A DNA stretch of 57,393 nucleotides from a virus. Lineage: Duplodnaviria; Caudoviricetes. The position numbers and the translations under genes were made by a program. Within the stretch, counting starts at the first letter, position 1, and each line of letters starts with the position of its first letter. Location: IMG/VR virus record IMGVR_UViG_3300045970_000131, positions 1 through 57,393 of that record; one strand, 5' to 3'. The notes under the pieces were generated by a model. That model had not been told where the DNA came from. It was given only the letters and a program-made list of their open reading frames with translations, and made no database searches. Shown here piece by piece: positions 12,244 to 57,393 of the stretch.

Positions 12244-13708
12244 TTTTTCTTACTCCTTCAGTTCTGAATTTAAGGCCGCGCTTATTGATCGCATCTAAAG
12301 CATCTAATCCGATCATCTTTACAGCGCCTTCATTCAATACAAATTCGCCATCACTTAACCTTGCAGGGATTGAATCGCTTGTCGCAGTACCCGCACCCTT
12401 TACACCACCTGATCCACTGAATACTTCGCTAGTTTCATCATCAATGGTGTCTCCTTCTGCGGCCTCTTCATCCATTTCACTCAAGCCATATTTAGATGGA
12501 TCAACTGCACCACCATTCTTTAGCCCATAGAATTTTTGTTGCTGTACATGAAGTGCCTCACCGTATCGATCAGAGTCTTCTGGCGATTTGAATTTTCCCA
12601 AGTGCTTGCCTGTTTTTTTATAAGTAGCGACTGCTTCATCATCACTCATGATTCGGCCATCATCACTTACAGTAGGTAATAGCATTTCAATTCCATCAAT
12701 GTTCACGCCGATACTGCGAACAGTGCTAATTGATCCATCCTTATTTTTAACTAAAGGACGTTTTGCAAGATCAATATTGCCTTTTTCTAATGGCACTACT
12801 TCGCCAATCTTAGAAGCATCAACTTCGCCACCATCTGCATACATGCCGATAGCAACACCAGCTAAGCTACCGATACCGCCCCACATTGCAGAGTTTGCAT
12901 CTTGCTGTGCTTTATAGCCTGCAAGCTGATTTTGGTATTGATTATTGAGAATATTTGCTTGGCTAGTATTACCAGCCATTGCAGCGTTATAACCTGCACC
13001 CATGGTGGCAAGTCCAGCACGTCCATTGGCTAGGTCATTACTGCCAACGCCTACAGCATTTAAACCTGCACTATTCGCAACATTGGCACTTGCAACCTGA
13101 TTAGAAGGTAAGTTACGTCCAAGACTTGCCGCGTCCATTTCCATTGCATGGCCTGTTAGTTCTGCCTTAGTGCGCCCAGCATTAGCTGCACTAGCACTAG
13201 CAACGGCCTCACTCACATCATTTTGTTGATTCATTGCCGCTGCATTTCCGCTATTCGGGTTTACACCCATGCGTTCATTGTTGCGTGCTGTGATCGCCTT
13301 TTGCGTATCGAATGCCTGCCTTACATCTGAAACACCTTTTGCAGCCTCTTGCTCACGTCTTCCAGCGCTATCCCAGTTCTTAGCATCTTCAACAATGTTC
13401 TTTTCAAGTGGTTGGAATGTACCCTTCCAGTAGTCTTGATACTCTTTGGCGTATGCTGCATTCTGCGTAGAGCTATCTAGCAACTGCTGCTGAACCTTCA
13501 TTGCAAGATCATGCTGGGCCGCATTAGCAGGCTTTGCCGCCTCATATTCTGTCTTGTAGAAGTTAAATGCATCCTCGCCAAGCTTGGCATTTTTTAGTGC
13601 AGCTAGACCAATTGCAGGATCAGGCGTAGGTGCATCACCACCGCTATCAAAAAAGAAAGTGAATTGCTTGATCCACCATAGTGGTGAAAGTAAATTTATT
13701 TTATCCAT
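12233..13708 (-). CDS. DNA ejection / internal virion protein 1
   Basis: SGGDAPTPDP N-terminus, A/N/Q-rich helices, glycine-zipper segment, YADGG and GTATSDSIPARLSDGEFVL motifs; follows the GNAT gene as in podoviruses. Confidence 0.7.
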   Translation of the reverse strand: MDKINLLSPLWWIKQFTFFFDSGGDAPTPDPAIGLAALKNAKLGEDAFNFYKTEYEAAKPANAAQHDLAMKVQQQLLDSSTQNAAYAKEYQDYWKGTFQPLEKNIVEDAKNWDSAGRREQEAAKGVSDVRQAFDTQKAITARNNERMGVNPNSGNAAAMNQQNDVSEAVASASAANAGRTKAELTGHAMEMDAASLGRNLPSNQVASANVANSAGLNAVGVGSNDLANGRAGLATMGAGYNAAMAGNTSQANILNNQYQNQLAGYKAQQDANSAMWGGIGSLAGVAIGMYADGGEVDASKIGEVVPLEKGNIDLAKRPLVKNKDGSISTVRSIGVNIDGIEMLLPTVSDDGRIMSDDEAVATYKKTGKHLGKFKSPEDSDRYGEALHVQQQKFYGLKNGGAVDPSKYGLSEMDEEAAEGDTIDDETSEVFSGSGGVKGAGTATSDSIPARLSDGEFVLNEGAVKMIGLDALDAINKRGLKFRTEGVRKNGN

Positions 13709-14109
13709 TTGCAGTTACCTCTAAATAATCCGTACACATATGCATCCCCATCTTTAAACCAGTCTTTCAGCGGCCCATCACACTCACGTACAAAGCCGAA
13801 GCGCTCAACAAACTCTATTGACTTGGTATTACTTACATTGATAAAAGCAGTTACGCGCTTTAAATCTAATTGCACAAACACATAATTTATAAAGGCGCGT
13901 ATTAATGCCCTTGTCACTTGATACTTTGGATCAATGGCAAATGTAACTTCGATGTTGCTGCCAGAGTGCCTAGAAAAAACAATCACGGCCTGTATCTTTC
14001 CGTCTTCACTCAAATCCGTGATTGTCCTGACATTATCAGGATTAAAGTTAGCATTTAGTCTATGATTTACATAGTCTACAAAGCCTTGATGTTGTTGATG
14101 AATCACCAT
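13696..14109 (-). CDS. GNAT (RimJ/RimL-like) acetyltransferase in the virion module
   Basis: YVFVQLDLKRVTAFINVSNTKSIEFVERFGFVRE motif. Confidence 0.8.
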   Translation of the reverse strand: MVIHQQHQGFVDYVNHRLNANFNPDNVRTITDLSEDGKIQAVIVFSRHSGSNIEVTFAIDPKYQVTRALIRAFINYVFVQLDLKRVTAFINVSNTKSIEFVERFGFVRECDGPLKDWFKDGDAYVYGLFRGNCKWIK

Positions 14110-15139: not shown

Positions 15140-17584
15140 TTATGGTGCCGCCGTATCAGTTACATTCAAGCCCTGATTGCCCAAGGTTACTTTTAGCGCG
15201 TCATAGTTTGCTTGAAGCACTACTGAATTAGGGTTATAAAATTCAACTATTGCTCTACCTTCACCGCCATTTGTTCCAGGATAGTAATAATCAGGGTTTC
15301 CAGATGTACTTAGTGATTGTGAGCCAGCACCGCCAGCACCATATCCAGTTGGTTGTGTTGGATAAGCAAAATAATTCATAACTCCACCAGCACCATATTT
15401 AGAAAACTCACCACTACCTGCTCGAACAGTTGGGCCATCCGGCGCAGATATATAATAAAAATGGTAGTAATAGATTGGAGTTGTAGTGTTATTAAGTGGG
15501 TTAGTTTGATAGTGGTGTATATAGCTGTAATTAGCATTGTTAGCGCCAGCGTAAGCACCACCAGCAGAAGTTAATAATGCTGATCCAATAGCGCCAGTAG
15601 TAGTATTCCTATTGTAAACTGCAGTATTCCCACCGCTTGTACCTGGTGCTCCATATTGATAGCCACCAGATAAGCCAGCAGCGCCAATATAAAGCATAAA
15701 TGTCGATCCTGGTGTTACAGTGAATGTCTGCTTTTGCTCAGTAGAATTTGCTCCACCATTACCAACTTGTGGGTTATGGTATGAATAAACTGTCGCACCA
15801 CCGCCACCACCTCCGCCTATCAGAGTTAATCTCATACGAGTCATTTGTGCTGGAACAGTAATTACTGTTTGACCAGATGGAACATTAGCTCTTGTATATA
15901 TGTCAGTACGTCCACCAAATGATGAAATATCTATAACACCAGCACGCAAAGAACCAGCAAATTCACCAGTAGAACCCGTTATATCACCATAAAATGTACC
16001 ATTTGCAGCCAGCAAATTCCCTGAAAACGTACCGCCAGCAGCTTGCAAATCACCAGCAAAAGTACCACTTGCAGCAAATAATGCCCCGCTAAATGTAGCA
16101 TTACCATTGATTATCTGGAATTGTGCTGTGTTAATGTTTAGGTTTATGCCGTTATAGGAAACATACTCACCCGATGCGCTGCCTGCATAAAATGTTGCGT
16201 AACCACCATATGAGCCAAAGAATAGGCCATCACCTGTGCCAAATCCTGTGGCACCCATGCGAATGTTACCAACACCATCAACAATAACGCGATTGGGGCC
16301 GCTGCCTACAGTTACTGACTCACTTGCAGAAATAGTGCCAGCAATTAGCTTGCTTACTGATAAGCTTTGAATCTTTGCATCGCTCACTGCTAAATCTACA
16401 ATCTTTGCCGTATCAACTGCTAGGTTTGCGATCTTTGCATTAGTAATTGTTGCATCGGCTATATAGGCCGCCTTCATATATGCGCCTGATGGAATGGTCA
16501 CGCCATTTACTACTGTAGGCGATGTAAGATAATAGAACGGCGATCCATCTGCTGAATTTGGGTTAGATGCTACTGGTGCAATTGAAAACTTATCAGCAAC
16601 AATCACAAATTCACTATATGGCGTTGCATTATTTAAAGTGCTAGCAAGACCAAATCCTGACACATAGCCATTACTATCAATTTTTACGGTATATTGTGCA
16701 AATAAAGCACCTGTTTGGCTAGCGCGAGTAGTTTGCTCGGTAGCTATCGCGGTTGTATTATCACCAATTGTTGATGATAGTGTTGTTACGGTATTTGCAA
16801 TGGCTGTATCTGCATTACTCCTAGCGGTTGTTTCAGTAGCTACCGCAGCACCAATGCGAGCATCAACCGTAGTATTGACTGCACCACTATTATCAATAAG
16901 ATTAATACGGCTATTGAGTGCATTAGTAAGCTGGTTAGTAGTTAATTGATTATTTAATAGGCTTAAAAAATAAGATGAATCACCAGCAGTAGTACCTGGT
17001 GTTCCAGCAAATGAATTATAATCTCCCGCTATTCCTGCACTAGATACCTGCCTGATCCAGTAATACTTGGTGACATTTGATTCATTGATAAAATCAGGAT
17101 AGACAAAGCCTGTAGATTTTCCGATTGATACAGCTATACCTATGTCATTGGTGTTTGCCCTGAAAATTTCCATGTAACCTGTTGCAATTTCATTCCATTC
17201 AAGAAGAATATTGAACATTGCACCAGTAACTATAAATCCTGTTGGGCTTGCTGGTGGTGTTAAGTCGATCACTGGCGTTGTTGGTGTAACAACACTACTG
17301 CCACTACTTCCACTGCTACCAGTACCACTATTCGGTGCAATAGTGCTATTGTTTGGCGATGTATTCTCTATAATATTTCCATTATCCACAAGATTGACAA
17401 TGCCAGCATCAAACAAGTCACGATAGGTGACTGAGCGATCCAAGCCTTGTCCTTTTGGGCGAGTACCTTCACGAACTTCAAGTATTTCTTTGATTGCTTC
17501 CAATATGGTGCGCGTAGCTGGATCATTAATGCCTTCAAGCGATGGAATTGATGGCAGTTTAGTCGGATTGTTAATGTCACTCAT
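15140..17584 (-). CDS. Tail fibre / receptor-binding protein
   Basis: FN3-like segment, coiled coil, AQYTVKID.NGYVSGFGL (J-like DUF1983), ITNAKI repeats, Gly-rich C-terminal domain. Confidence 0.85.
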   Translation of the reverse strand: MSDINNPTKLPSIPSLEGINDPATRTILEAIKEILEVREGTRPKGQGLDRSVTYRDLFDAGIVNLVDNGNIIENTSPNNSTIAPNSGTGSSGSSGSSVVTPTTPVIDLTPPASPTGFIVTGAMFNILLEWNEIATGYMEIFRANTNDIGIAVSIGKSTGFVYPDFINESNVTKYYWIRQVSSAGIAGDYNSFAGTPGTTAGDSSYFLSLLNNQLTTNQLTNALNSRINLIDNSGAVNTTVDARIGAAVATETTARSNADTAIANTVTTLSSTIGDNTTAIATEQTTRASQTGALFAQYTVKIDSNGYVSGFGLASTLNNATPYSEFVIVADKFSIAPVASNPNSADGSPFYYLTSPTVVNGVTIPSGAYMKAAYIADATITNAKIANLAVDTAKIVDLAVSDAKIQSLSVSKLIAGTISASESVTVGSGPNRVIVDGVGNIRMGATGFGTGDGLFFGSYGGYATFYAGSASGEYVSYNGINLNINTAQFQIINGNATFSGALFAASGTFAGDLQAAGGTFSGNLLAANGTFYGDITGSTGEFAGSLRAGVIDISSFGGRTDIYTRANVPSGQTVITVPAQMTRMRLTLIGGGGGGGATVYSYHNPQVGNGGANSTEQKQTFTVTPGSTFMLYIGAAGLSGGYQYGAPGTSGGNTAVYNRNTTTGAIGSALLTSAGGAYAGANNANYSYIHHYQTNPLNNTTTPIYYYHFYYISAPDGPTVRAGSGEFSKYGAGGVMNYFAYPTQPTGYGAGGAGSQSLSTSGNPDYYYPGTNGGEGRAIVEFYNPNSVVLQANYDALKVTLGNQGLNVTDTAAP

Positions 17585-25958: not shown

Positions 25959-28094
25959 TTACACAAGCGCATCTAGGAAGCTTAAATATCGCTCATTTGC
26001 TGGCCAGTATTGCAAATCAGGGAATAGCGTTAGAATCTGTGCATCAGACAATCCCATCCAACGTGCGAATGTCGCTCCATATTGATAAACCGATGTAGAA
26101 GGAACTAAAATATTTCCTGCCAAATCTGGCCCAGTTGCGCTATATGACGGTATATTTCCGTAAATTTTATTACCACGAACAGACTTGCCAAATACAAATT
26201 GGTGCCCACCCCATGCATGGTCAGTACCAGCATTATTTGACGTGAATGTTCGTCCAAACTCAGATATTGTAAATGTTACAACATCAGCATCTTGAATACG
26301 GCTAACGATACTATTGAAATAACTGAGTACGTCATTTAAGCATCCAAGGTTTGAATGGTTCGCAAATGTGTGTGAATCCCATGCAACATTAGGTGAGCCA
26401 GTATATAAAACCTGTCTATCAAGATTGATAAGCTTAAATTTAGTAGCGACATTGCTCAACAATGTAGTTGCAGTAGTATTGATAGTGAATGATGTAGTAT
26501 TTGGCACAGAAACTACTTGATACCCTGTAGTTGGTGATGAAGAATCTAATCCTGTCGCTGTCAAGTACACCTTGTTTAAAACTGTTAAGTTATGTTTTAA
26601 CTGAATGTTTACTGGCACGTTTACTAATGCTGTAGTGTCTGTCCCTGTCAATGTGAATGCATTATCCTCATTGCCCTCTACAAGTGTTATTTTATAGCCA
26701 TTTGCTGGTGGCGCTGCATCAATTGTTGCACCAGTAGTTGTCACCAGTACGCTATCAGATAAGTCAGATGTACTCGTACCTGAAGTAAACAAGCCATGAC
26801 CATTTGATGTGATGGTCATCACTGCTGATCCTGCTGTACGGTTTGCAACCCCTGTCGTGACCTGAGTGGTAATCGTAGCTACATTTGAGGCTGCAGCACG
26901 TGACATTGTTGCGCCGCGATTTGGGTTATTAGCCAAAATCATACGAGCCAATGTTTTCATTCCGCTTGCCCATGTTGATGCATTAAATGCCATCGATCCA
27001 ACAATGTTATATGCAATAGCAGGCGGATCAGTCAGGTTGATCACATTACCCATGATGTTTTGGAAGTCATTACCTTGTTGCGCTGTTGGTGTGAATGACT
27101 CAGTAAAATCACTTGTAAGCGGGTTTGTTGTCGTAGCTTGGATAAATAAGGCTTTTAATGCAGTTTGCACTCCGCCTGATTCAGCAGTAAAGTTTCCAGC
27201 ACCATCAGGCATCTTACGGATCAATCCTGATGATGATACATTAAATACTTTTGCTGTGCTTCCTGCTGAGAATGCAGGGCGACCTGATGCAGATACAGAA
27301 GCAATCTGTGGATTAGGGCCAGATAATCCAGCAAGTATCTGATCAGCGATTCCACCACCCCACCCTTTAGTTGCACCTTCAGGCGCATTACTATGCCAAG
27401 TTGTAGTTTGGTCATTGTGTGATGTAAGCTGTGCTGGATATTGCTGTGAGTTTGCTGCTGTAATAACACCGTTACCGATAGCATCAACATCTAGGTTAAA
27501 GATACCGCCATTTGTGCCAGATTTGTAAGTCTTACGGCGAAGTGGGCCAATATTAGAAATTACCAAGCCTTTAACCTTAGATGCATTACCTGCATTGTCT
27601 GGAACATTAATTACATCACTCAAGAATGGTAATGCAGGGTGGAATGCTGGATCACGACCAGATGCTACTGATTCGTTTATTTTAAATTGCTGCGTGTTTT
27701 TTGCATCAATTTGCAGATTGCCTAAATATGTACCTGAATAAGTAACATCACCAAAGCTTATTGTTTCAGTTGCTGTAGAAAAAGCATTTCCTGTCAGCGT
27801 AACAGTATTGGCCCCTACTGCACTAATCTTTAAGCGTCTTTGTGCAGGTAAATTAGGTGAGTACACTAATTGCCCTACAGCTAAACTGGTAACATCAGCC
27901 AATCCAGTAATTACATTTGAATCTTTGGTTAGCGTACCTGATTTAGTAACGGCATTGGTATAAGTTAATATATTTGATGCTGCTAGTGCACGTGCGGTTT
28001 GAATTTCAGAAACGCTAGCTGAATCTCGCGCAGACATAAAGTTAAATGCATCCATGCCCCCGCCTAAGTCAACACAAACTAATATTTTAGACAT
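25959..28094 (-). CDS. DUF1501-family protein with inserted tail-like beta domains
   Basis: LVCVDLGGGMDAFN, SHNDQ, GWGG, WDSH, SEFGRT..SN..GTDHAWGG, PSTSVYQYGATFARWMG; no Tat leader. Confidence 0.85.
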   Translation of the reverse strand: MSKILVCVDLGGGMDAFNFMSARDSASVSEIQTARALAASNILTYTNAVTKSGTLTKDSNVITGLADVTSLAVGQLVYSPNLPAQRRLKISAVGANTVTLTGNAFSTATETISFGDVTYSGTYLGNLQIDAKNTQQFKINESVASGRDPAFHPALPFLSDVINVPDNAGNASKVKGLVISNIGPLRRKTYKSGTNGGIFNLDVDAIGNGVITAANSQQYPAQLTSHNDQTTTWHSNAPEGATKGWGGGIADQILAGLSGPNPQIASVSASGRPAFSAGSTAKVFNVSSSGLIRKMPDGAGNFTAESGGVQTALKALFIQATTTNPLTSDFTESFTPTAQQGNDFQNIMGNVINLTDPPAIAYNIVGSMAFNASTWASGMKTLARMILANNPNRGATMSRAAASNVATITTQVTTGVANRTAGSAVMTITSNGHGLFTSGTSTSDLSDSVLVTTTGATIDAAPPANGYKITLVEGNEDNAFTLTGTDTTALVNVPVNIQLKHNLTVLNKVYLTATGLDSSSPTTGYQVVSVPNTTSFTINTTATTLLSNVATKFKLINLDRQVLYTGSPNVAWDSHTFANHSNLGCLNDVLSYFNSIVSRIQDADVVTFTISEFGRTFTSNNAGTDHAWGGHQFVFGKSVRGNKIYGNIPSYSATGPDLAGNILVPSTSVYQYGATFARWMGLSDAQILTLFPDLQYWPANERYLSFLDALV

Positions 28095-31577: not shown

Positions 31578-32054
31578 CTAGATAGTTTCAAAATCGGTTA
31601 AAAATGCAAAGAAAGTGCTGCTTGTGGTTGATTCTGCTGTTTCAAAGTCTGTTAAGAATGATAGAAAGCCTGTAGATACTGTGTTTGTTACATCTGCTGT
31701 ATCAAAATCGGTTAAAAATGATAAAAATCCACCAGTAGAAGTGCTAGTTACTGCTGCATCTGAAGTTGAAAAGTCAGTATCAAATGCCAAGAACCCACCC
31801 AATACTTGTATAACACCGCCAATTCCTGCCAATGCTGCAGCAATCATTGCCTGCACCTGATCGATAGTTGCAATCTCAGTGACTGGATTTAGAATGTCGA
31901 ATGCATCTGGCTTTGTTTCAAAAAAATCCAGATTATCCGTGCGTACGATGTAAATATTGCCTGGTGCCATCGCTACCCAGTTGTTAAGCCAGTCATTTGC
32001 ATGACATTCAATCTTCGCTCTTACTTTGTGGTACTCAGTAGCCATGTTTAACAC
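31578..32054 (-). CDS. Hypothetical protein with four F-[LF]-x-F-x-T-D-F repeats
   Basis: FLAFDTDF, FLSFLTDF (twice), FFAFLTDF separated by S/T-rich spacers. Confidence 0.7.
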   Translation of the reverse strand: MLNMATEYHKVRAKIECHANDWLNNWVAMAPGNIYIVRTDNLDFFETKPDAFDILNPVTEIATIDQVQAMIAAALAGIGGVIQVLGGFLAFDTDFSTSDAAVTSTSTGGFLSFLTDFDTADVTNTVSTGFLSFLTDFETAESTTSSTFFAFLTDFETI

Positions 32055-40479: not shown

Positions 40480-41150
40480 GATGCACTCCCTGATAACATT
40501 GCTTTAAAATCAGCCAATCGTTGGCGATTTTTTTCCAATTGCTCAGGCGTTAATTCAGTTTTGTTTGATAGCAGTCCAACTACTTCCGTAATTGCTGGAT
40601 TTATTTTCACAGGCAAAATTGAAAGCGCATGATCTTGTGTGATACGGCCTTTTTGAACGGCAAGTTTTAAAGCCTCTTCGCGGCCTTCTTTGCTAGTTCC
40701 GAGTGATGGAAACCATTTGGGCGCGATGCCGTTGAATTTATTTGCTGATGTAATTCGGTTGTAGGCTTCTTTGAATGCCATGCGAGCGCCGATCATGTCA
40801 CCATCATTGAGCAACGGCCTTGCAGATTGCATAGCCTCTGCCATTTCGTTTGTGATAACTGCACTTGTAGCTTCATCGTGCGGGTAAATCGCCCACGCCT
40901 CTTCTGCACCAATACGCCCATCAGGATTAGCACTTTCAAGCATGGCGATAATGTCTGCTGGCCTTGGTGCGAATCTGCCATTTTTTGAATCTTGGATATG
41001 GCGGCTAAATGCCTCTTGAACTTGCTCGATTTCAAATCTAATCAATGCCGCCCACCATAAGCGCAAAACCTCTTTGGTTACTTCTTGCCCATAGATGCTC
41101 ATCGTTGCAATAAACAAATCTTTGAACTGCACTTTGTCTGAATCAATCAT
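40476..41150 (-). CDS. Replication protein P-like (helicase loader, DUF6475-like)
   Basis: LWWAAL...F.P.PADI...AEEAW; follows the initiator; GAGG SD before MIDSDK. Confidence 0.7.
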   Translation of the reverse strand: MIDSDKVQFKDLFIATMSIYGQEVTKEVLRLWWAALIRFEIEQVQEAFSRHIQDSKNGRFAPRPADIIAMLESANPDGRIGAEEAWAIYPHDEATSAVITNEMAEAMQSARPLLNDGDMIGARMAFKEAYNRITSANKFNGIAPKWFPSLGTSKEGREEALKLAVQKGRITQDHALSILPVKINPAITEVVGLLSNKTELTPEQLEKNRQRLADFKAMLSGSAS

Positions 41151-42045
41151 AAACAACCTCGCCTTCAATCGTCTTTTCGTTTCCGTCGTTTAAAAACTCA
41201 TCCCCAGCTTGTTTATTTTTCTCGGTGATGATTTGTGTTTTAGTTTTAAATCCGCTTTCGCCTTTTGCTGATCTAAACCAATTGCGCCATGCAGCTTCCC
41301 AATCTGATTTTTTACCCGTTCGCTGGTTAGCATTTGCTAGCCAATGGTCTTTAAACTTATCAGCCTCTTTACGAATCATGTCGGGAGTAAATTCAGGTTT
41401 TTCAGATAAAGCCCATTCACCCCATTTTTTTGGAAGCGTCCAATCTTTGGGAAGTTGTGAGCCTTTTTTTGTGGTGGCTGCCGATTCATCGGCGGCGCTA
41501 ACTCCTGCTCCTGCTTCCTGTTCTTGTTCCTGTTCTTGTTCTTGTTCCTGTTCTTGTTCTTGTTCCTGTTCTTGTTCCTGTTCTTGTTCTTGGCTTGCAA
41601 GGGGCTTTGAAGGGGCTTTATTATTTCTAGATAATGACATTAAGAATTTTGTTTTATATTTATCAAAGAATGGCTTTAAATAAGGGCTTTCAGGCTGTGC
41701 GTTGTACTCATTTTGAACACCCTTTACCCTTAAATCTTTCTCGGTAAGTTGCTCACCTATTTGGTAGCTAGCCATTTCATATACCCATACCACCTCTGAA
41801 GCATCATCGTAGGCACAAAATCCAGCTTCAATTGCACTTTGAAGCCCCTTAGAAGCCCCTTCAACTGATAGGCCACACTCATGAGCAATATAGATTTTTG
41901 GTAAGTAATACATGCCAAGCATGTTGGCGTGTGAGCATGTCATCAGGTACAAAGAAACTAACTGGCACTCAATCCCTTTAGCGCGCAGTTTTTTACCTGT
42001 TGCACCTATCCAAAATTGCGGACTAACTTTTGAATAGTCGCGCAT
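41143..42045 (-). CDS. Replication initiator (O-like)
   Basis: MRDY.KVSPQFW N-terminal domain, QE-repeat linker, KF.DHW...DWEAAWRNW C-terminal domain. Confidence 0.8.
   Translation of the reverse strand: MRDYSKVSPQFWIGATGKKLRAKGIECQLVSLYLMTCSHANMLGMYYLPKIYIAHECGLSVEGASKGLQSAIEAGFCAYDDASEVVWVYEMASYQIGEQLTEKDLRVKGVQNEYNAQPESPYLKPFFDKYKTKFLMSLSRNNKAPSKPLASQEQEQEQEQEQEQEQEQEQEQEQEQEAGAGVSAADESAATTKKGSQLPKDWTLPKKWGEWALSEKPEFTPDMIRKEADKFKDHWLANANQRTGKKSDWEAAWRNWFRSAKGESGFKTKTQIITEKNKQAGDEFLNDGNEKTIEGEVVYD
41515..41592 (-). repeat. Hexamer microsatellite (CARGAA)13 encoding (QE)13
   Basis: 13 units counted directly. Confidence 0.95.
41599..41861. other. Putative replication origin (iterons)
   Basis: AAGGGGCTT at 41599 and 41610; inverse GAAGCCCCTT at 41841 and 41852; AT-rich tract 41619-41680; inside the initiator gene. 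Confidence 0.55.
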
Positions 42046-42444
42046 TTAAACAGCACTCCATAAACTTGCATTAGCTTGATGTGCACGCGGATTCTTGACT
42101 TGGCTATATCCAGTGCTTTTAATTAATCCTTCACGCTTTGCCCTGCAAATTAAACCGCCCCATGCTCGACCACTAGGAGCATCAGGTAAGCCTTTTATAT
42201 GCGCATAAGCACGTATGTCCTCGCACATGAATTGACCACGTGCAATGCTGACAAACTCTTTCAAAAGCGCATAGGCATCATCAGACCATCCCTCATACAC
42301 ATGATCTGCATGCGCGATAGCGTCAGACATACCCTGTAGTTTTAAATCACTAGCAGTTTGTTCGGTATCGCACCGAACAGAACTAAAATTGAAGTTAGTC
42401 TGAGGATTAGGGGTAACTTGAGTGGATATTTTTTGATTAAGCAT
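42046..42444 (-). CDS. Hypothetical protein (wHTH-like)
   Basis: F..ED.R...P...RAWG...AKREGLI motif; in operon. Confidence 0.65.
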   Translation of the reverse strand: MLNQKISTQVTPNPQTNFNFSSVRCDTEQTASDLKLQGMSDAIAHADHVYEGWSDDAYALLKEFVSIARGQFMCEDIRAYAHIKGLPDAPSGRAWGGLICRAKREGLIKSTGYSQVKNPRAHQANASLWSAV

Positions 42445-42696
42445 TTAATCCACCACTGTTGGATTATGTTTTACTGCATTTGAAATTAAACTTGCTTCAT
42501 CGATCTTGTGATTAACAAACTCATTGAGGATGCGAGAAACTATGTCAGTTCTAGATACAAACTTACCCGTCATGCGCGATTCAGAAGTGGCAACAGAATC
42601 TATTACCCCAAGAACCACAAGGGGCAGATTACACCTAAGTTCAGCTAAAGCCTCACCTACTCGATTAGAGCGCGCAAATAATAAATCATCATCCAT
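42445..42696 (-). CDS. CII-position regulator (RHH-like)
   Basis: Between cro and replication genes; SRTDIVSRIL. Confidence 0.5.
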   Translation of the reverse strand: MDDDLLFARSNRVGEALAELRCNLPLVVLGVIDSVATSESRMTGKFVSRTDIVSRILNEFVNHKIDEASLISNAVKHNPTVVD

Positions 42697-42732
42697 AGTA
42701 ATATTGCCTCGTCAGTTATGTTTGTTTGAGAA

Positions 42733-42927
42733 TTAGGCGGCTTTTGAACAGTGAAGCGCATGTAGAGCATCAATCTTCCTGCCACCCTTTTCTATTCCAA
42801 TGTCTTTTTGCACGCCATTAGCTAAATCTGAAATTGTTGGCTGCGATACTCCAATAGCCTCAGATAAAGCCTTTTGGGTAAATCCTTGCTCAATTAAGTC
42901 GCGTATTTTTTCGTTTACGTTTTTCAT
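42733..42927 (-). CDS. cro: Cro-like repressor
   Basis: HTH TQKALSEAIGVSQPTISDL; divergent from cI; probably leaderless. Confidence 0.85.
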   Translation of the reverse strand: MKNVNEKIRDLIEQGFTQKALSEAIGVSQPTISDLANGVQKDIGIEKGGRKIDALHALHCSKAA

Positions 42928-42934
42928 AGTCATC

Positions 42935-43001
42935 ATTATATAGGAGTTCCTATGTCACTTGTCAATAGGCAATCCTATTCGTTAAAAATAGATAATCCGA
43001 T
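42935..43001. promoter_or_regulatory. OR operators and pR/pRM
   Basis: ATAGGAGTTCCTAT (42940), ATAGGCAATCCTAT (42965), ATAGATAATCCGAT (42988); TTGACA...TATATAAT on the minus strand. Confidence 0.8.
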
Positions 43002-43002
43002 A

Positions 43003-43665
43003 ATGAGCACATTTGGTGAACGATTAAGAGAGGCGAGAAAAGATAAGAAGCTGTCACAAACGGCTTTGGCTAAACTCGTAGGTTTGAAGCAACCAACAAT
43101 TGCAGAGGCTGAAACAGAGGGTAAAGGAAGTAGTAGGGCTGCTCTTTTAGCAAAGGTATTAGGTGTTAATGCACTATGGTTATCTGAGGGAAAGGGTGAT
43201 AAAGGGACAGTAGCGAGCCCTGAGATAGATTTAAGTGATAATGAGGATTACCCACCAGTGCGAAGAGTGACACTTACATTATCAGCTGGCCATACTGGCT
43301 ATGCAATTGAACATGATATTCAAGATAAAACACCAATTGTGTTTGCAAAAGAATGGTTTATAAGTAATGGCTATAAACCAGAAAATTTACTTGCCGTTAA
43401 GGTCAAGGGTGAAAGCATGCAGCCAAGCTTACATGATGGTGATACTGTAACCTTGAATATAGCAGATACAAAGCCTATGGATGGGTTCGTATTTGCTATA
43501 AACTATGAAGGTGAACTGCTCATTAAAAGGCTTATTCGTGATGCAGGTACATGGTGGATTAGTAGCGATAATCCAGATCAAAGAAAATACCCACGTAAAG
43601 AATGTATCAATGAGGGGTGCTTGATACTTGGTCGTATAGTTCATAAGCAAAGTGAATTTATATAG
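43003..43665 (+). CDS. cI: CI repressor (HTH plus S24 autopeptidase)
   Basis: HTH LSQTALAKLVGLKQPTI; SAG cleavage site; VKGESM and LIKRL catalytic motifs; start re-set to MSTFGERL. Confidence 0.93.
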   Translation: MSTFGERLREARKDKKLSQTALAKLVGLKQPTIAEAETEGKGSSRAALLAKVLGVNALWLSEGKGDKGTVASPEIDLSDNEDYPPVRRVTLTLSAGHTGYAIEHDIQDKTPIVFAKEWFISNGYKPENLLAVKVKGESMQPSLHDGDTVTLNIADTKPMDGFVFAINYEGELLIKRLIRDAGTWWISSDNPDQRKYPRKECINEGCLILGRIVHKQSEFI

Positions 43666-43667
43666 AT

Positions 43668-43943
43668 ATGACAAGAATTTTTATCTTAGCTGTCAGCTGC
43701 TTATTCATTTTTGGGTGTTGCAAAAAAACACCAGAAGATTGTATTTTAGAAAACATTGAAAAAGCACATAGCAATGCATCAGCAAATATGATTAGTCATA
43801 TTTGTACTGAAAAATATGGTGCAAAAACATCCACAAAGATTATAGAGGATTTTGGGCCAGCAGCACCAGCACCGAATACAGAGGATTCAGATAAATCAAA
43901 TTTAGATAAAAATGGATATATACATGACCCATATAGTAAATAG
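43668..43943 (+). CDS. Lipoprotein co-transcribed with cI; candidate superinfection exclusion protein
   Basis: Signal peptide with IFGC lipobox-like site; C-terminal LDKNGYIHDPY matches the giant protein N-terminus. Confidence 0.65.
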   Translation: MTRIFILAVSCLFIFGCCKKTPEDCILENIEKAHSNASANMISHICTEKYGAKTSTKIIEDFGPAAPAPNTEDSDKSNLDKNGYIHDPYSK

Positions 43944-44202
43944 ACCAATATTTTTTATATTGTTAATTATGTCAGCGCATTGCTACGCAGCTACCGACTA
44001 TCAATGTGTTAATAATTGCACAAACAATGGCCATCAATACAACTATTGTACTGATCGATGCAGCTATGACGATCCAAGCCAAACACTGCCAACCCTGCCA
44101 ACTCTAACCGATCCAGTTAAACAAACAGACTATCAATGCATGAATACCTGCACCAGTAAAGGCTATCAGTACAATTACTGCCAGCAAGCATGTTCGTTTT
44201 AA
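43912..44202 (+). CDS. Secreted Cys-rich two-repeat miniprotein
   Basis: Signal peptide; two TDYQCxNxCTxxGxQYNYCxxxCS repeats. Confidence 0.7.
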   Translation: MDIYMTHIVNRPIFFILLIMSAHCYAATDYQCVNNCTNNGHQYNYCTDRCSYDDPSQTLPTLPTLTDPVKQTDYQCMNTCTSKGYQYNYCQQACSF

Positions 44203-44257
44203 ATAACCTACCTACCCGTTACAAATAACCTACCCACCCCTTATCGCAAATTAAATT

Positions 44258-44281
44258 ACTCGCCTAATGCGGGTTTTTTTA
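44258..44281 (+). terminator. Terminator of the cI operon
   Basis: ACTCGC-CTAAT-GCGGGT followed by a T run. Confidence 0.7.
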
Positions 44282-44298
44282 TGTTCTTGTAAATAAAT

Positions 44299-44340
44299 AT
44301 AGGTACTCCTATTGACACATATTATAGGATAACCTATTAT
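44299..44340 (+). promoter_or_regulatory. pL promoter with OL operators
   Basis: TTGACA(44312)-17-TATTAT(44335); ATAGGTACTCCTAT (44299), ATAGGATAACCTAT (44324). Confidence 0.85.
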
Positions 44341-44559
44341 TCTATCCATCGCATCAAACAAAGCGCCGAGTGCGTGAGTTAAGAAAATTCGCTATAGCGG
44401 GTAACCATCAAGTCACAGATGGCCAGAAGCTAAGCCTAGATTCAAAGTTAAACGAGTTTGTGTGCAAAGGTTCACGGCTTGCACCCGAAAGTGCTCATTT
44501 CCTCAACTCGCTAGGTGGCGATTGCATCAAAGCCTAGCAATTTTTAAGGTAGTTGCGAT

Positions 44560-44943
44560 ATGAGATTTTCTACTGATATTGGTTGTTTTGAAATAGATAG
44601 TATGCCGAGTCAATGCCAGGTAGCAATTGCTCACGGATTCTTTATACATGAGCATAAACGCGGTCAAGGATTAGCTAGTGTATTGCACGCAAGGCAAATA
44701 AAAGAGCTTCGTAACCTTGGATATGACTATGCAATTTGCACGGTAAGTGGTGACAACCCAGCACAGTCAAAGGCAATTAAAAATGCTGGATGGACGCTAA
44801 CTAACACTTTTTACAATCGCAGAATAAGCAAGCAGACAGAAGTTTGGGAGCTGAATATTGTCGCTCTAAACAGAAGAGAGTCAGACAGTACATTATTTGG
44901 TGTATTCCCATCACCGCTTACTGAATATCTGGAAACAGCGTAA
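44560..44943 (+). CDS. GNAT acetyltransferase, first early gene
   Basis: Motif A FFIHEHKRGQGLA; N.A...IKNAGW. Confidence 0.75.
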   Translation: MRFSTDIGCFEIDSMPSQCQVAIAHGFFIHEHKRGQGLASVLHARQIKELRNLGYDYAICTVSGDNPAQSKAIKNAGWTLTNTFYNRRISKQTEVWELNIVALNRRESDSTLFGVFPSPLTEYLETA

Positions 44944-45176
44944 TGGCTTGGGCAGAACTTTATACCACTAAAGAGCGCATCGCGATGATTCAGGAAGAGA
45001 TACGCGGTGTTAAGTCTCAATACAACATTACATCGTTTGAGTTGAAGGTAATGGAATCAATGAAGAATTTAAGCGTTGGCTCATTTAAGCAAAACAAAAT
45101 TCTTGAACAAATTGAAATTAAAGTTTTTGGCCGCAGTCGGGCGCATGAAGAAAAGTCTCTATCACTTAAATCATGA
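44943..45176 (+). CDS. Hypothetical protein
   Basis: TAATG-coupled. Confidence 0.6.
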   Translation: MAWAELYTTKERIAMIQEEIRGVKSQYNITSFELKVMESMKNLSVGSFKQNKILEQIEIKVFGRSRAHEEKSLSLKS

Positions 45177-53505: not shown

Positions 53506-55991
53506 GGGGTTAAACGTCTGGCAATCTGATCCTGCTGCTGGCGTAGATTGCTAATCTTTGCCTGCTTCTCACTGGCCGACATATCCGCTAATTCAATTTT
53601 CTTGATATTGTCGTTAATCCGCTTAGTGAGTTTTTTCACAGTTTCAACATTCCGATACACCTTGAGCTCACTATCATGGCTTTGACGGTAAGACTCGGCT
53701 TCGGCACCCTTGCCCTGCTTCTGTAAATGCTTCCATGTGCTGTATGCCTTTTCGAGCTCGGCAGCCTGGTCATACATTTGAGTAACGTAGCGGCTTTGAT
53801 CACTCGGCAGCTTGGCCACCATTCCGCCTGTAGCTGCTTTGTATAGGTCAAGCGCTGGCTTTGTGGGCTCATTCATTGTTGAACGTACCAATATATCAGA
53901 ACCAGACACGACAAACGATCCGATCCAGCCAAAATAGGACTGTACCAAGTGATCAATTTGTATCGGTGATAGGAAAGCATTGCCAGTCACCGCATTGCCT
54001 GCAGTGCTAACGCCGCGTGCAATTAGGCTAGTATCCTGGTTAAAGCGATAATCAGGGTCTAAGCGCTCCATGCCCATGCCCTCAATCGGGCGGCCCGTGA
54101 ATGAATCTTTATTGGCATAAATATCAATAATAGGTTTCACCAGCTGCGGTGTTGGGTTCATAGACAATTGGTTCATGACAAGGTTTGCTATGACCTTTTT
54201 GAAGCGATCACCAGTCATTTCTTTATCAAAGACCAGCTCAGCACCGCGCTCAGCAATGGTTGCAATAGCACCGATTTCAAACGGCTTAGGAATACGGAAA
54301 GCAGTACCACCAATTTTAAACCACCAGTAGTTGTCACGATCCCAGTCTTCGCGCTTTTTCCAGTCATCGTCATCACCATAGGCAGCAAGTAGGGCCAGTG
54401 ATGCCACGGTAACGGCACCAAGTACGATTGCAAAGCGTGCCTTGTCTTCATTGGCTGATTTTCCAAGCTTATACAGACCTTGTAAGCGTGCATTCATGAA
54501 TGGAACCACTTGGGTTAAGAATCGAACAGAAGTCCATGCACCATGCATAGAGAAGTCCATCAGGTCACGGGCCATCAATGATGCAGTCGCGTGATCCATG
54601 CCCTTAGCTTTAAGCTGATGATAGAGCGCCATGCGGTTGATTTCTTCTCCACGGTTGCCAAGCTCATTGTAGGCAGCGATAGAAGGATCAATGTATTTGT
54701 CGTACATTTTACGAACTTTGCTTTCATCATTAAGGATTGATTCATCACTGGCACCCTGCTTGATAAGCTGTCTTACCCGTGATGCGTCATTGCCTTCCAG
54801 CATGGTACCGAACCTGATCAGGCCACCGCCAGCTAGTGCAGATATGTACTCTTGCACTGGGTTCTTTTTATTGGTGAGTGCAATGCCCTCTTTAATGTTT
54901 TTAACTGGGTTGTAACTTAACTCTGCAGTAGCAATAGCCTGGACTGAATCTCGGATCAAGTTGCGCACTTTAAAGAATGGTGATGCAGTAACACCCACAG
55001 TTAAAAGATTCTTACTCATGGATAGTATGCCCATTGCACCATTACGCATACCGGCATATTCAAGGCTTGAAATTGCCGTGAGTATGTACGGATCATCTAC
55101 CTTGTATTCAACCTTGTTGCCGCCTTCCATGGCCCAAACGGTTTTTTTATCACCCATAACGGCCTTGTGTGCCAAGCCTAGTTGCTCGGCTGTCTTGAGC
55201 GTGGCCAATGCTGCGCGATTCTTTGCTGATGCATCAATCAAGTGAGCCCAATTCATTAAGGTATTTGAAAGCAGATCATTAAGCTTTTGATCACCGCCTT
55301 TTAGCTTTTTGAATGCCTCTTGGCGAATTACACCACCCTTGATGTTTAGGCCACGCACGCCGCCTTCTTGGTCTTCGGCCATACGGTAGAATGGCACATA
55401 AAAATCATGCTCCCAGTGTTTACGGCTTGCAGGATCAATCAGGCCAGACTGTTCAGCGATGTCCAGCACGTTACGGCTAAAGCCATTAAATTTAGCAAGT
55501 GAGTCTAGGTAAATGAGTGGCCGTTCGCGTGTGACATTACCATTAGCCAGCGTGTAGTCAAAGTCTGTTTGGCCATCGGTTAGTGACTTGAATGCAGTGA
55601 TGTCATCCTTAGTAAATAGATTCTCTTTACCTTCACGGGCTAGGCGCTCGGCACGGTTGCCAGCGATCCAGCGTAAAAAGTCGGTAGACTCCTTGCCCAG
55701 CGGGTAAAACACTTTATCAAGCACGCCGCCTGTATTGTCTGCATCAGTAACATCATTGCTTATTTTAAGCTTGCCATAATGCATGAAGGCTTCAAACGCG
55801 CCTGTTGCACCTTTTGACAATCGAAGCAATGTGTATGCATGAGAGTCGATGTCTTTCACTGGTGCAAACTGATCAAAAATACCTTGGGCCGCTTTTTTAC
55901 CTGCGTCTTGCCAGATTTCTTGAAGTGTCTCTTTTACAGTGTTTTTAGACAACACTGAGCCAGTGCGCTCTAGTGCTGCCTTTTGCTCTGG
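53499..55991 (-). CDS. Giant polyvalent protein, C-terminal part with LPD38-like domain (after the frameshift)
   Basis: YVPFYR, RNLIRD, DF...G...VPF.NARLQG, WDRDNYWW...RIPKPFEIG; frame extends upstream of the track start to PEQKAALERTGSV. Confidence 0.85.
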   Translation of the reverse strand, partial: PEQKAALERTGSVLSKNTVKETLQEIWQDAGKKAAQGIFDQFAPVKDIDSHAYTLLRLSKGATGAFEAFMHYGKLKISNDVTDADNTGGVLDKVFYPLGKESTDFLRWIAGNRAERLAREGKENLFTKDDITAFKSLTDGQTDFDYTLANGNVTRERPLIYLDSLAKFNGFSRNVLDIAEQSGLIDPASRKHWEHDFYVPFYRMAEDQEGGVRGLNIKGGVIRQEAFKKLKGGDQKLNDLLSNTLMNWAHLIDASAKNRAALATLKTAEQLGLAHKAVMGDKKTVWAMEGGNKVEYKVDDPYILTAISSLEYAGMRNGAMGILSMSKNLLTVGVTASPFFKVRNLIRDSVQAIATAELSYNPVKNIKEGIALTNKKNPVQEYISALAGGGLIRFGTMLEGNDASRVRQLIKQGASDESILNDESKVRKMYDKYIDPSIAAYNELGNRGEEINRMALYHQLKAKGMDHATASLMARDLMDFSMHGAWTSVRFLTQVVPFMNARLQGLYKLGKSANEDKARFAIVLGAVTVASLALLAAYGDDDDWKKREDWDRDNYWWFKIGGTAFRIPKPFEIGAIATIAERGAELVFDKEMTGDRFKKVIANLVMNQLSMNPTPQLVKPIIDIYANKDSFTGRPIEGMGMERLDPDYRFNQDTSLIARGVSTAGNAVTGNAFLSPIQIDHLVQSYFGWIGSFVVSGSDILVRSTMNEPTKPALDLYKAATGGMVAKLPSDQSRYVTQMYDQAAELEKAYSTWKHLQKQGKGAEAESYRQSHDSELKVYRNVETVKKLTKRINDNIKKIELADMSASEKQAKISNLRQQQDQIARRLTPQ

Positions 55992-57393
55992 CTGTATTGT
56001 CTACCTGAATTGCCAACGATGGATTTACGACTAAATAATATACTGTCATTGTTAGAATCGAATGAGCCAGTGTTGCCGATAGCGGATGGTATTTCTTCTT
56101 TTGTTACTTTTCCACCTGTAACCAACACTCGATAATCACCTTCATCAATGCCTAAACTTTTTAAGTTTTCAATCAAAGCCTTTTGATAATCTTCTTTAAA
56201 ATTGTTTATTTCAATCGGTTTTGTAATTGGTTTTACTGTATTCAAGTCAAGTAAAGGCTCTCCGTCTGAACCGTTGCCAACTTTTTCCCCTTCTACAATA
56301 TAGGCATATTCTCCACCATCTACGGGTTGAGGTATTTTTGCAACACTCAATCCACCCTCGCTCATACCTGTAGCCCAATTCTTCGAGCCACGGTGTGTGC
56401 CATTAATTAAATGCTCATAATCATCTTTTGATGTAGATACTCTAACAAATTGGTTTTCTTTTAAAGGGCTAAAGTATTCTTGCAATAACAGTTCGGCTTC
56501 TCTCTGCAAATCAGATATTGATTTAAACTTTAATTGCGTTAAAAGCTGAACATTGCCGTTATCGTCAATATAAATCGACTTATCTCCACTGCTTTCAATG
56601 GCATGGATAGGAACGCTTTTTAGATATTTCCCATTGTCTGTAATGTTTAATCTCATGTTTGAAAGATTAGCATTATTTACCGCATTTTGAATAGGCTTGC
56701 CGTTGCTGTTTAGGGTGGGGCGTTTTTTACTGTCAATGGTGATGGTGTCGGGCAGGGTTCGGCTATAAGCAATAGCCGTGGCTTGGTTTAACCCGTTATC
56801 CCGCCGCGCGAGGCGGATAATGCCGCCCAAAAAGCGTCCCCGCTCTCCCTGTGCTGTTGCTCGTAAGCTGGTAGATGTGATAACCGCTCTTTTAAGCGTT
56901 GCGCTGCCAGCGTCAACATTACGCGCTCCGTAGGTCTTGGCAAGTTTTGCAAATTCTGCATCTGTAAACTCTGTGCCATCGGCTCTATTTTTGAATGTTC
57001 CATCGTTAGTATCGTAGAATAAATCATCAATTTTTGCAACGCCTATTGCATTATTAGATTTATAAGTGACCTCAAAGTCAGTACCTTCGTTTTCAGTGAC
57101 AAAAACACCGTTCTTAATGGCGTTGTATGACGCATTAAGCATCTGGTCAAGGTTGTATTCGGTGTCGCCCTCTTTCCATTTAAACTCAAGCTCGCCCAAC
57201 ATATTAGGATGTGGTTGAATATGGTCAGTTGTTCCAAATTTAAGCGTGGTTGAAATCATATTTTCTAGGCGGCGCATCATTCCATCAGGGCTGATACCTT
57301 GCCGATCACCAGTAAATACCTTGCCGTTGTTATACGCCCAATTAGAAACGGCAGCATAAATAGCAGAACCGCCCTTGTATCTGCCCCAATTAG
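55970..57393 (-). CDS. Giant polyvalent protein, middle part (GNAT-like plus ART-like); open off the right edge
   Basis: Frame open to 57391 (NWGRYKGGSAIYAAVSNWAYNNGKVFTGD); R..S.NWATG..EGGLSV...GSDGEPLL domain; frame compatible with position 1. Confidence 0.8.
   Translation of the reverse strand, partial: NWGRYKGGSAIYAAVSNWAYNNGKVFTGDRQGISPDGMMRRLENMISTTLKFGTTDHIQPHPNMLGELEFKWKEGDTEYNLDQMLNASYNAIKNGVFVTENEGTDFEVTYKSNNAIGVAKIDDLFYDTNDGTFKNRADGTEFTDAEFAKLAKTYGARNVDAGSATLKRAVITSTSLRATAQGERGRFLGGIIRLARRDNGLNQATAIAYSRTLPDTITIDSKKRPTLNSNGKPIQNAVNNANLSNMRLNITDNGKYLKSVPIHAIESSGDKSIYIDDNGNVQLLTQLKFKSISDLQREAELLLQEYFSPLKENQFVRVSTSKDDYEHLINGTHRGSKNWATGMSEGGLSVAKIPQPVDGGEYAYIVEGEKVGNGSDGEPLLDLNTVKPITKPIEINNFKEDYQKALIENLKSLGIDEGDYRVLVTGGKVTKEEIPSAIGNTGSFDSNNDSILFSRKSIVGNSGRQYSQSKRQH
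56788..56919 (-). CDS. Possible fourth overprinted (+1 frame) peptide, 43 aa
   Basis: GGAG SD 6 nt before ATG at 56919; MLTLAAQRLKERLSHLPAYEQQHRESGDAFWAALSASRGGITG. Confidence 0.35.
   Translation of the reverse strand: MLTLAAQRLKERLSHLPAYEQQHRESGDAFWAALSASRGGITG

Follow-up and report, generated by a model that had tools for sequence, protein, structure and literature searches.

Prophage-encoded proteins that act on phage entry are the closest described counterparts of the gene considered here. This gene, at positions 43668 to 43943 (+ strand) of IMG/VR virus record IMGVR_UViG_3300045970_000131, encodes a predicted lipoprotein of 91 amino acids whose C-terminal end resembles the N-terminal end of the giant protein of the same phage. 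The whole record, 57,393 bases long, was analyzed and is referred to below as the window. Ltp of Streptococcus thermophilus phage TP-J34 is a superinfection-exclusion lipoprotein whose reported target is the tape measure protein. Like the lipoprotein of the window, Ltp is prophage-encoded, would share with it a surface anchor, and belongs to the lysogeny region; it is described as blocking DNA entry, and its target enters with the DNA. Unlike the lipoprotein of the window, Ltp acts in a Gram-positive host; no sequence likeness was found between the two (no PHROG family was matched), and the available part of the Ltp literature describes no mimicry of a target peptide. Ltp reportedly has folded repeat domains. 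Escape mutations for the second counterpart, SieA of phage P22, are reported in the ejection proteins gp16 and gp20. SieA resembles the role proposed below in being prophage-expressed and in blocking DNA injection by phages of its own type. It differs in being an inner-membrane protein without sequence relation to the lipoprotein, and the abstract on SieA reports no peptide shared with the ejection proteins.

Other systems are more distant. Among small phage lipoproteins with a protective role at the cell envelope, Llp of T5 and Cor of phi80 and HK022 reportedly block the receptor FhuA and not the ejection machinery; the lipoprotein of the window has no match to their families. The TolB box of colicins is a short epitope in the disordered N-terminus of an imported protein, which competes with the lipoprotein Pal for a periplasmic partner. 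In the window the direction and the players are different, and there is no likeness to the TolB box. By sequence the nearest group is the VF_A0006 four-cysteine family (PF28034, NF041602), the function of which is not known. It has the same unit, E-D-C-[IV]-L-E-N ... C-x-x-K-[YF], as the lipoprotein, which differs from the family in having one unit rather than two, a score below the curated cut-off, a lipobox and a unique tail.

The peptide shared by the lipoprotein and the giant protein

The sites and genes that carry the peptide, or its core, are as follows.

43902 to 43934, + strand: LDKNGYIHDPY at the C-terminal end of the lipoprotein, with the core YIHDPY (residues 84-89) at 43917-43934
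10550 to 10582, - strand: LDENGYIADPY at the N-terminal end of the giant protein (residues 7-17), including YIADPY (residues 12-17), its first Y-x-x-D-P-Y site
9284 to 9301, - strand: YLPDPY (residues 434-439), the second Y-x-x-D-P-Y site of the giant protein
10756 to 10773, - strand: YGTDPY, a Y-x-x-D-P-Y site near the C-terminus of the 547-residue protein (residues 491-496)
1 to 10600, - strand: giant polyvalent protein, residues 1 to ~3533, from the in-frame continuation across the record ends
55970 to 57393, - strand: the C-terminal 473 residues of the giant protein, with the LPD37 domain, from the circular join and a Pfam match
10600 to 12243, - strand: 547-residue protein directly upstream of the giant gene, with a stop/start overlap TAATG and no family match

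The lipoprotein ends ...SNLDKNGYIHDPYSK (also given as ...PAAPAPNTEDSDKSNLDKNGYIHDPYSK), its flexible last 40 residues ending ...LDKNGYIHDPYSK, and the giant protein starts MDDAKGLDENGYIADPY (also given as MDDAKGLDENGYIADPYANV). The two peptides are identical at 9 of 11 positions, as the original prediction had claimed, and the coordinates of both were confirmed. Their DNA is identical at 26 of 33 bases. The ungapped high-scoring segment pair (HSP) extends over 16 residues (10/16 identical, 62.5%; 29.0 bits). Among HSPs that link two different proteins of the window it ranks second. The top one joins the 814-residue (15140-17584, - strand) and 711-residue (25959-28094, - strand) proteins, which have a stretch of 28 residues in common with 50% identity (residues 86-113 and 438-465, respectively) that may be a shared module. 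Neither site of the peptide falls in a helix of the models, which are of low confidence; for the giant protein, a low-confidence single-sequence model is non-helical over residues 1-26. A prediction of the complex between the 547-residue protein and residues 18-91 of the lipoprotein scored 0.07 (mark 0.34) and is not counted for or against binding.

The chance of such a match was assessed on the proteome of the window, defined as 69 greedy non-overlapping open reading frames (ORFs) with 18,626 amino acids, by counting pairs of 11-mers with at least 9 identities. Fourteen pairs reach 9/11; 13 are repeats within single proteins, and the pair described here is the only one between different proteins. 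When the residues of each protein were shuffled, 4 of 60 trials produced one or more pairs of this strength (mean 0.067). A pool of real sequences was also used, comprising the window and 16 other loci (116,355 amino acids; 6.8e9 window pairs), from which protein pairs with BLAST E < 1e-3 and low-complexity windows were removed. Eight matches remained after this filter: five between unrelated loci, two within Caulobacter phage BL94, and this one. The five chance matches correspond to ~7e-10 per window pair, which is ~2x the shuffle rate and leads to ~0.13 expected in this window, and none of them joins one protein end to another. If the comparison is limited to the 25 residues at either end of each protein, a framing picked after the data had been seen, 0 of 1555 shuffles gave a 9/11 pair.

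In BL94 (L030) the matching peptide is (K/A)VDDFEDL(T), found in the primase (residue 304) and in gp014 (residue 428) and gp015 (residue 170), two proteins annotated as hypothetical in which it lies near the C-terminus. It resembles the common docking tail of the T7 gp2.5/gp4 kind. VDDFEDL looks like a true shared peptide and thus an unplanned positive control, and its recovery by the same scan indicates that within-genome matches of this kind can be functional.

The core of the peptide recurs in the window. Y-x-x-D-P-Y, a pattern likewise picked with the data in view, occurs four times in the proteome compared with 0.046 expected from composition, and all four sites are in the lipoprotein and two adjacent virion proteins. 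In the control loci (97,729 amino acids) it occurs once, in a locus (L002) chosen for holding the motif. To correct for the choice of pattern, every sub-pattern that keeps four or five of the nine shared residues was scored (252 in all); an equally small best p-value was reached by 49 of 1000 shuffles, so that the corrected p is ~0.05. Overall, the match is modestly beyond chance and not overwhelming by itself. It joins the end of one protein to the end of another, its core appears again in two adjacent virion proteins, and true shared peptides are among within-genome matches of this kind; on these grounds we regard it as probably non-random, short of proof.

The original prediction had also pointed to synonymous differences between the two sites (GGA/GGG, ATA/ATT, GAC/GAT) as a sign of selection on the protein. 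These differences are present, but the same codon is used at 6 of the 9 conserved residues, as against 4.0 +/- 1.4 expected from the codon usage of the window; this indicates neither recent copying nor selection, and the argument was dropped.

The giant protein itself is split by the ends of the record. Joining these ends gives a single ORF of 4007 amino acids, which starts at 10600 on the - strand and resumes from 57393 to 55970; since the ends join in frame, the assembly is circular or circularly permuted, despite its 'linear' class. Pfam matches comprise ddrB-ParB, ResIII/Helicase_C (a helicase of the SNF2 type), the PBECR1 nuclease and LPD37, by which the protein is classed as a DarB-like polyvalent protein of Bcep22-like podoviruses. 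The DarB-like giant protein of the Bcep22-like phage JC1 was detected in purified virions by mass spectrometry (PMC9144972).

The predicted lipoprotein and its putative immunity operon

The lipoprotein gene lies in the immunity region and is co-oriented with the repressor, a location of the kind expected for exclusion genes. The features of this region are listed below.

42733 to 42936, - strand: cro-like helix-turn-helix (HTH) gene, divergent from cI (Pfam HTH_3, 2.6e-8)
42952 to 43665, + strand: cI-like repressor with HTH and S24 peptidase, first gene of the operon (Peptidase_S24, 5e-19; HTH_3, 9.1e-8; phrog_4, 7.9e-51)
43668 to 43943, + strand: lipoprotein gene (91 amino acids), with its ATG 2 nt past the cI stop
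43668 to 43718, + strand: predicted signal peptide MTRIFILAVSCLFIFG and lipobox Cys17, from the translation; alignments A1 and A3 show no other residue at the lipobox Cys position
43734 to 43817, + strand: VF_A0006-like two-cysteine unit EDCILEN...C..KY (Cys25 and Cys46), from the alignment; modelled as two helices
43818 to 43940, + strand: lineage-specific tail (residues 51-91) with a Pro/Ala linker, an acidic stretch and the terminal peptide; modelled as coil, pLDDT mostly <55
43924 (or 43912) to 44202, + strand: secreted Cys-rich protein with two TDYQC..C...G.QYNYC...C repeats; sub-threshold matches only
44258 to 44274, + strand: terminator-like hairpin followed by a T run, after both small genes and the sole such site in 42400-45000
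44312 to 44340, + strand: promoter-like TTGACA-17-TATTAT (11/12), from a site search; candidate early-left promoter

Judged by its sequence, the gene at 43668-43943 is real. Its product has an MTR n-region, a hydrophobic core IFILAVSCLFIF and a G-C17 lipobox (...LFIFG-C17). Phe at position -2 of the lipobox is unusual, and a looser lipobox pattern permits it. The claim that this is a lipoprotein is borne out by the signal peptide, the lipobox and the alignment of the cysteines of homologues with Cys17; the protein would be lipid-anchored at this residue and localised to a membrane. In E. coli the +2 rule decides the localisation of lipoproteins, and by that rule, if it applies to the host of this phage, the Cys at +2 would lead to the inner leaflet of the outer membrane. 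A search of the window for tRNA genes, which might point to the host, found none.

The conserved unit has the form E-D-C-x-L ... C-x-x-K and is present once. C25, L27 and C46 are invariant in 32 sequences, and E23, D24, C25, L27, A39, C46 and K49 in the 12 closest (A3). A phmmer search of 1.84 billion representatives found five lipoprotein relatives (4e-5 to 5e-4), all matching over the N-terminal unit only, and also listed a sixth, unrelated repetitive protein (P0010). A family profile then collected 42 proteins at E <= 0.01, including the query itself (41 others); precomputed annotation assigns PF28034, which is VF_A0006 by the Atlas output, to 22 of the 42 and Adhesin_E to 4. The lipoprotein has no precomputed domain, and its match to NCBIfam NF041602 (VF_A0006 four-cysteine; E 0.0045) scores 16.8 bits, below the curated cut-off of 65. 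No PHROGs or PADLOC family was matched by the lipoprotein, and thus none of exclusion lipoproteins of the Ltp, Llp/Cor or TrbK type; the one TrbK match (E 0.0039, below the cut-off) is to a relative, P0009, and not to this lipoprotein. For the tail, Pfam and NCBIfam gave nothing either; sequence searches of the PDB gave nothing useful, and Atlas feature matches were all <0.8. Pattern matches to the family in viral contigs were confirmed in 1 of 52 cases, and chromosomal neighbours are seen in L024 and other loci.

In the AlphaFold model (mean pLDDT 56.6) the signal helix is followed by helices at residues 22-30 and 36-50 and by coil from residue 51. This is consistent with the predicted Pro/Ala/acidic tether, the end of the tail being modelled as coil at low confidence. 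Each family member has a tail of its own, mostly of low complexity. Inheritance of this tail from the family was considered and rejected: an HMM of the family tail motif matches neither the tail nor the N-terminus of the giant protein, and Smith-Waterman comparisons with family tails gave p = 0.23 and 0.42.

In a metagenomic mosaic relative of 11 kb (L017) the place of the lipoprotein gene after cI is taken by a family member, P0006, which has a different and longer tail (example of its tail motif: EKIIGLASELYP); the tail would thus be the variable, possibly specificity-giving part of these proteins. The relative shares a replication protein (85% identical over 151 amino acids), an exonuclease-like protein (39%) and cI (31%) with the window, and its contig does not include the giant gene. 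At 2640-4745 (+ strand) it has more small genes after cI: a 118-residue lipoprotein-like protein, a 112-residue membrane protein, P0006 and two others.

Placement of the gene in the cI transcript, as originally proposed, is supported as a matter of layout by the gap of 2 nt and by the terminator-like site followed by the promoter-like site. The order of cI, lipoprotein, secreted protein, terminator-like and promoter-like sites fits a cI-moron operon expressed in lysogens, and the cI-rexAB-terminator-PL layout of lambda is of the same kind. The Cys-rich gene overlaps the final 20-32 bases of the lipoprotein gene, so the DNA of the motif is read in two frames; the sub-threshold Pfam and NCBIfam matches of its product are to Ole_e_6 and actinodefensin. 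The first gene beyond the promoter-like site (44560-44943, + strand) has a weak GNAT-type acetyltransferase match. Two pond-metagenome runs from two studies hold the stretch; one probably is its source, and the other yielded a 342-base contig (43672-44013) without differences; there is therefore no variation to analyze.

Possible exclusion by peptide competition and its alternatives

The explanation that we propose, tentatively and as one possibility, is superinfection exclusion through competition by a copy of the phage's own peptide. A small envelope lipoprotein would be made in lysogens along with the repressor, consisting of the lipid anchor at Cys17, the two-helix VF_A0006-like unit with its two cysteines, and a flexible tail with the peptide. 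Virion proteins would use the same peptide as a short docking motif while they pass through the periplasm at DNA entry, the docking partner being either a protein of the host envelope or a further ejection protein. On the lipoprotein, a tethered copy could occupy this partner, or pair with the incoming peptide, so that injection by phages of the same kind would not be completed. With one carrier predicted to be expressed in the envelope of the lysogen and the other probably injected, competition at superinfection is the most natural specific mechanism, and SieA and Ltp, as far as they are described, offer precedents for exclusion proteins that act on entry proteins. Of the original interpretation, the lipoprotein, the tether, the layout of the cI operon and the DarB-like giant protein stand, and the codon argument does not.

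A bolder version holds that Y-x-x-D-P-Y is a new periplasmic docking epitope by which the ejection proteins of this phage lineage seize a host envelope factor at genome entry, comparable to the Tol or Ton boxes in the disordered N-terminus of colicins, that the prophage displays the same epitope on a lipid-anchored tether and so protects its host through self-mimicry, and that the hypervariable tails of VF_A0006-like proteins are exchangeable decoy cassettes; we consider this combination distinctly improbable.

Several observations weigh against exclusion by competition. In the all-against-all comparison the chance of the match, 0.07 to 0.13, is not small, and the two framings, protein ends and Y..DPY, were chosen after the fact. 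The two mismatches (K/E and H/A) are non-conservative, and the Y-x-x-D-P-Y site of the 547-residue protein has a local enrichment of D, P and Y around it, which shuffles of whole proteins do not model. Because the following gene begins within the DNA of the motif, the end of the tail could be unselected read-on. The VF_A0006-like family is found mostly outside phages, and an action of the protein on phages is therefore not a necessary assumption. As to expression, there is no RNA run among the listed sequencing runs with the stretch. In Bcep22, SopranoGao and four metagenomic relatives the giant protein has a different N-terminus (VAKN.../MVQRVEAW...) and lacks the motif. Finally, there is no evidence of conservation: the tail, residues 1-260 of the giant protein and the 547-residue protein are without relatives in the collections searched.

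A word search with the lipoprotein returned itself only. Residues 1-400 of the giant protein gave 75 pattern matches and no relatives in viral contigs; of residues 1-600, compared with 50,697 phage records, only 263-429 had matches; and residues 1-260 scored in none of 3578 long-protein candidates and had 0 matches in 401 genomes of one bacterial order. In tblastn against phages the 31-residue tail had no match and the 30-residue N-terminus of the giant protein had one, with E = 9. In IMG/VR, D.NGYI.DPY was found only in 2 contigs, which encode one unrelated giant protein with the motif in its interior, while the family tail motif [ED]K[VI]IG..S[ED]LYP (0 matches) and P0016, a protein of a 64-kb contig, were not found. 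The 547-residue protein has neither a relative nor a Pfam or PHROG family. Prophages sharing the replication protein are present in 11 of 400 genomes; among the 5 best of these the family profile matched 0 of 5 and the 491-residue virion protein described below 1 of 5, by its C-terminal 50 residues only.

The most serious alternative, to which we give only slightly less weight, is that the match is a coincidence and the gene an ordinary lysogen-expressed VF_A0006-like moron with an envelope role unrelated to the giant protein, such as receptor masking, adhesion or stress tolerance, its tail being a hypervariable disordered linker that runs over the start of the next gene. The frequency of such pairs in shuffled and real sequences, the diverse and mostly low-complexity tails of the family and its mainly non-phage contexts agree with this explanation. 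So do the codons, which are compatible with independent origin, and the common occurrence of D-x-N-G with an aromatic residue after it as a turn-like pattern; an 850-residue protein has LDSNGIPVDTY. It accounts less readily for the end-to-end position of the match, which was not reproduced in the shuffles restricted to protein ends, and for the additional Y..DPY sites in two neighbouring virion proteins, even at the corrected probability. A real signal that is shared for reasons other than exclusion, for example because both proteins are recognised by one periplasmic protease or chaperone or attach to one envelope structure, would enjoy the same match statistics as competition, and nothing found here bears on exclusion itself. 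We consider it unlikely, as no known signal of this form was found in Pfam, PHROGs, NCBIfam, PADLOC or the PDB sequence searches, and as a lysogen-expressed envelope protein and an injected protein would meet most naturally at superinfection.

Two further explanations involve the history or the class of the gene. Illegitimate recombination may once have placed a short copy of the 5' end of a giant gene at the 3' end of the lipoprotein gene, where it would now be without function; the 26 of 33 identical bases and the slight excess of identical codons are in favour of this, but the DNA likeness does not extend beyond the motif, the excess of codons is no larger than 1.4 standard deviations, and the sites are 33 kb apart on opposite strands with no surrounding repeat, which makes such a relic very unlikely. 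An accessory role of the gene in lysis or assembly, instead of lysogeny, is scarcely credible. Spanins of the outer membrane are small lipoproteins with a Pro-rich stretch and extra cysteines, and the lipoprotein resembles them in all of these respects, but it has no PHROG (spanin) match, belongs to a mostly non-phage family, and is located in the immunity region, joined to cI and next to the secreted Cys-rich protein instead of beside lysis genes.

Ltp and SieA were found by genetics, and the manner in which they recognise their targets is poorly understood. If peptide competition is the correct explanation, it would provide a rule that can be read from sequence, namely to seek peptides of virion proteins on envelope proteins encoded in lysogeny regions, and from this rule the exclusion gene and the step that it blocks could both be predicted. 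It would also mark a functional epitope in giant polyvalent proteins, whose entry into the cell is not understood. Exclusion at the entry machinery is known; self-mimicry of a terminal peptide as the principle of recognition would be new, and a limited literature search turned up no precedent for self-mimicry. If instead the match is a coincidence, the gene is one more uncharacterised prophage lipoprotein. The idea of mimicry is striking and testable, and the sequence evidence for it is suggestive but thin.

Placement of the phage and minor observations

The record, rated 97% complete and with 43% G+C, comes from pond metagenomes, and the cI-like repressor with its divergent cro-like gene gives it a temperate layout. 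Two further genes upstream of the giant gene place the phage.

12233 to 13708, - strand: 491-residue virion structural protein (phrog_8003, 3.1e-71), the marker for Bcep22-like placement
13696 to 14109, - strand: GNAT acyltransferase (acyl-CoA N-acyltransferase), conserved before the ejection genes in Bcep22-like phages

The order acyltransferase, phrog_8003 virion protein, second protein, giant protein is that of Bcep22-like (Lessievirus-type) phages and corresponds to gp69, gp70, gp74 and gp75 of Bcep22 and to gp10, gp09, gp07 and gp06 of Klebsiella phage SopranoGao. In tblastn the 491-residue protein matches 154 phage records, including Bcep22, DC1, SopranoGao and PEp14, with an identity to its Bcep22-like counterparts of only 35-39%. 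Its C-terminal 50 residues (430-479) resemble segments of tape measure proteins in several PHROGs, and these residues alone match 800-residue ORFs in prophage regions of one genome (G713). A distant Bcep22-like contig (L006) has, between the second ejection gene and the giant gene, an ORF of 167 residues (12392-12895, + strand) with a lipobox-like ...VLSGC.

Elsewhere in the window, a 158-residue protein (31578-32054, - strand) has an internal near-repeat, TGGFLSFLTDF and STGFLSFLTDF. A replication-type protein (41143-42045, - strand) contains a long (EQ)n repeat at ~41500-41670, on which, in the read lay-out, contigs from numerous other organisms accumulate at a word depth in the thousands.

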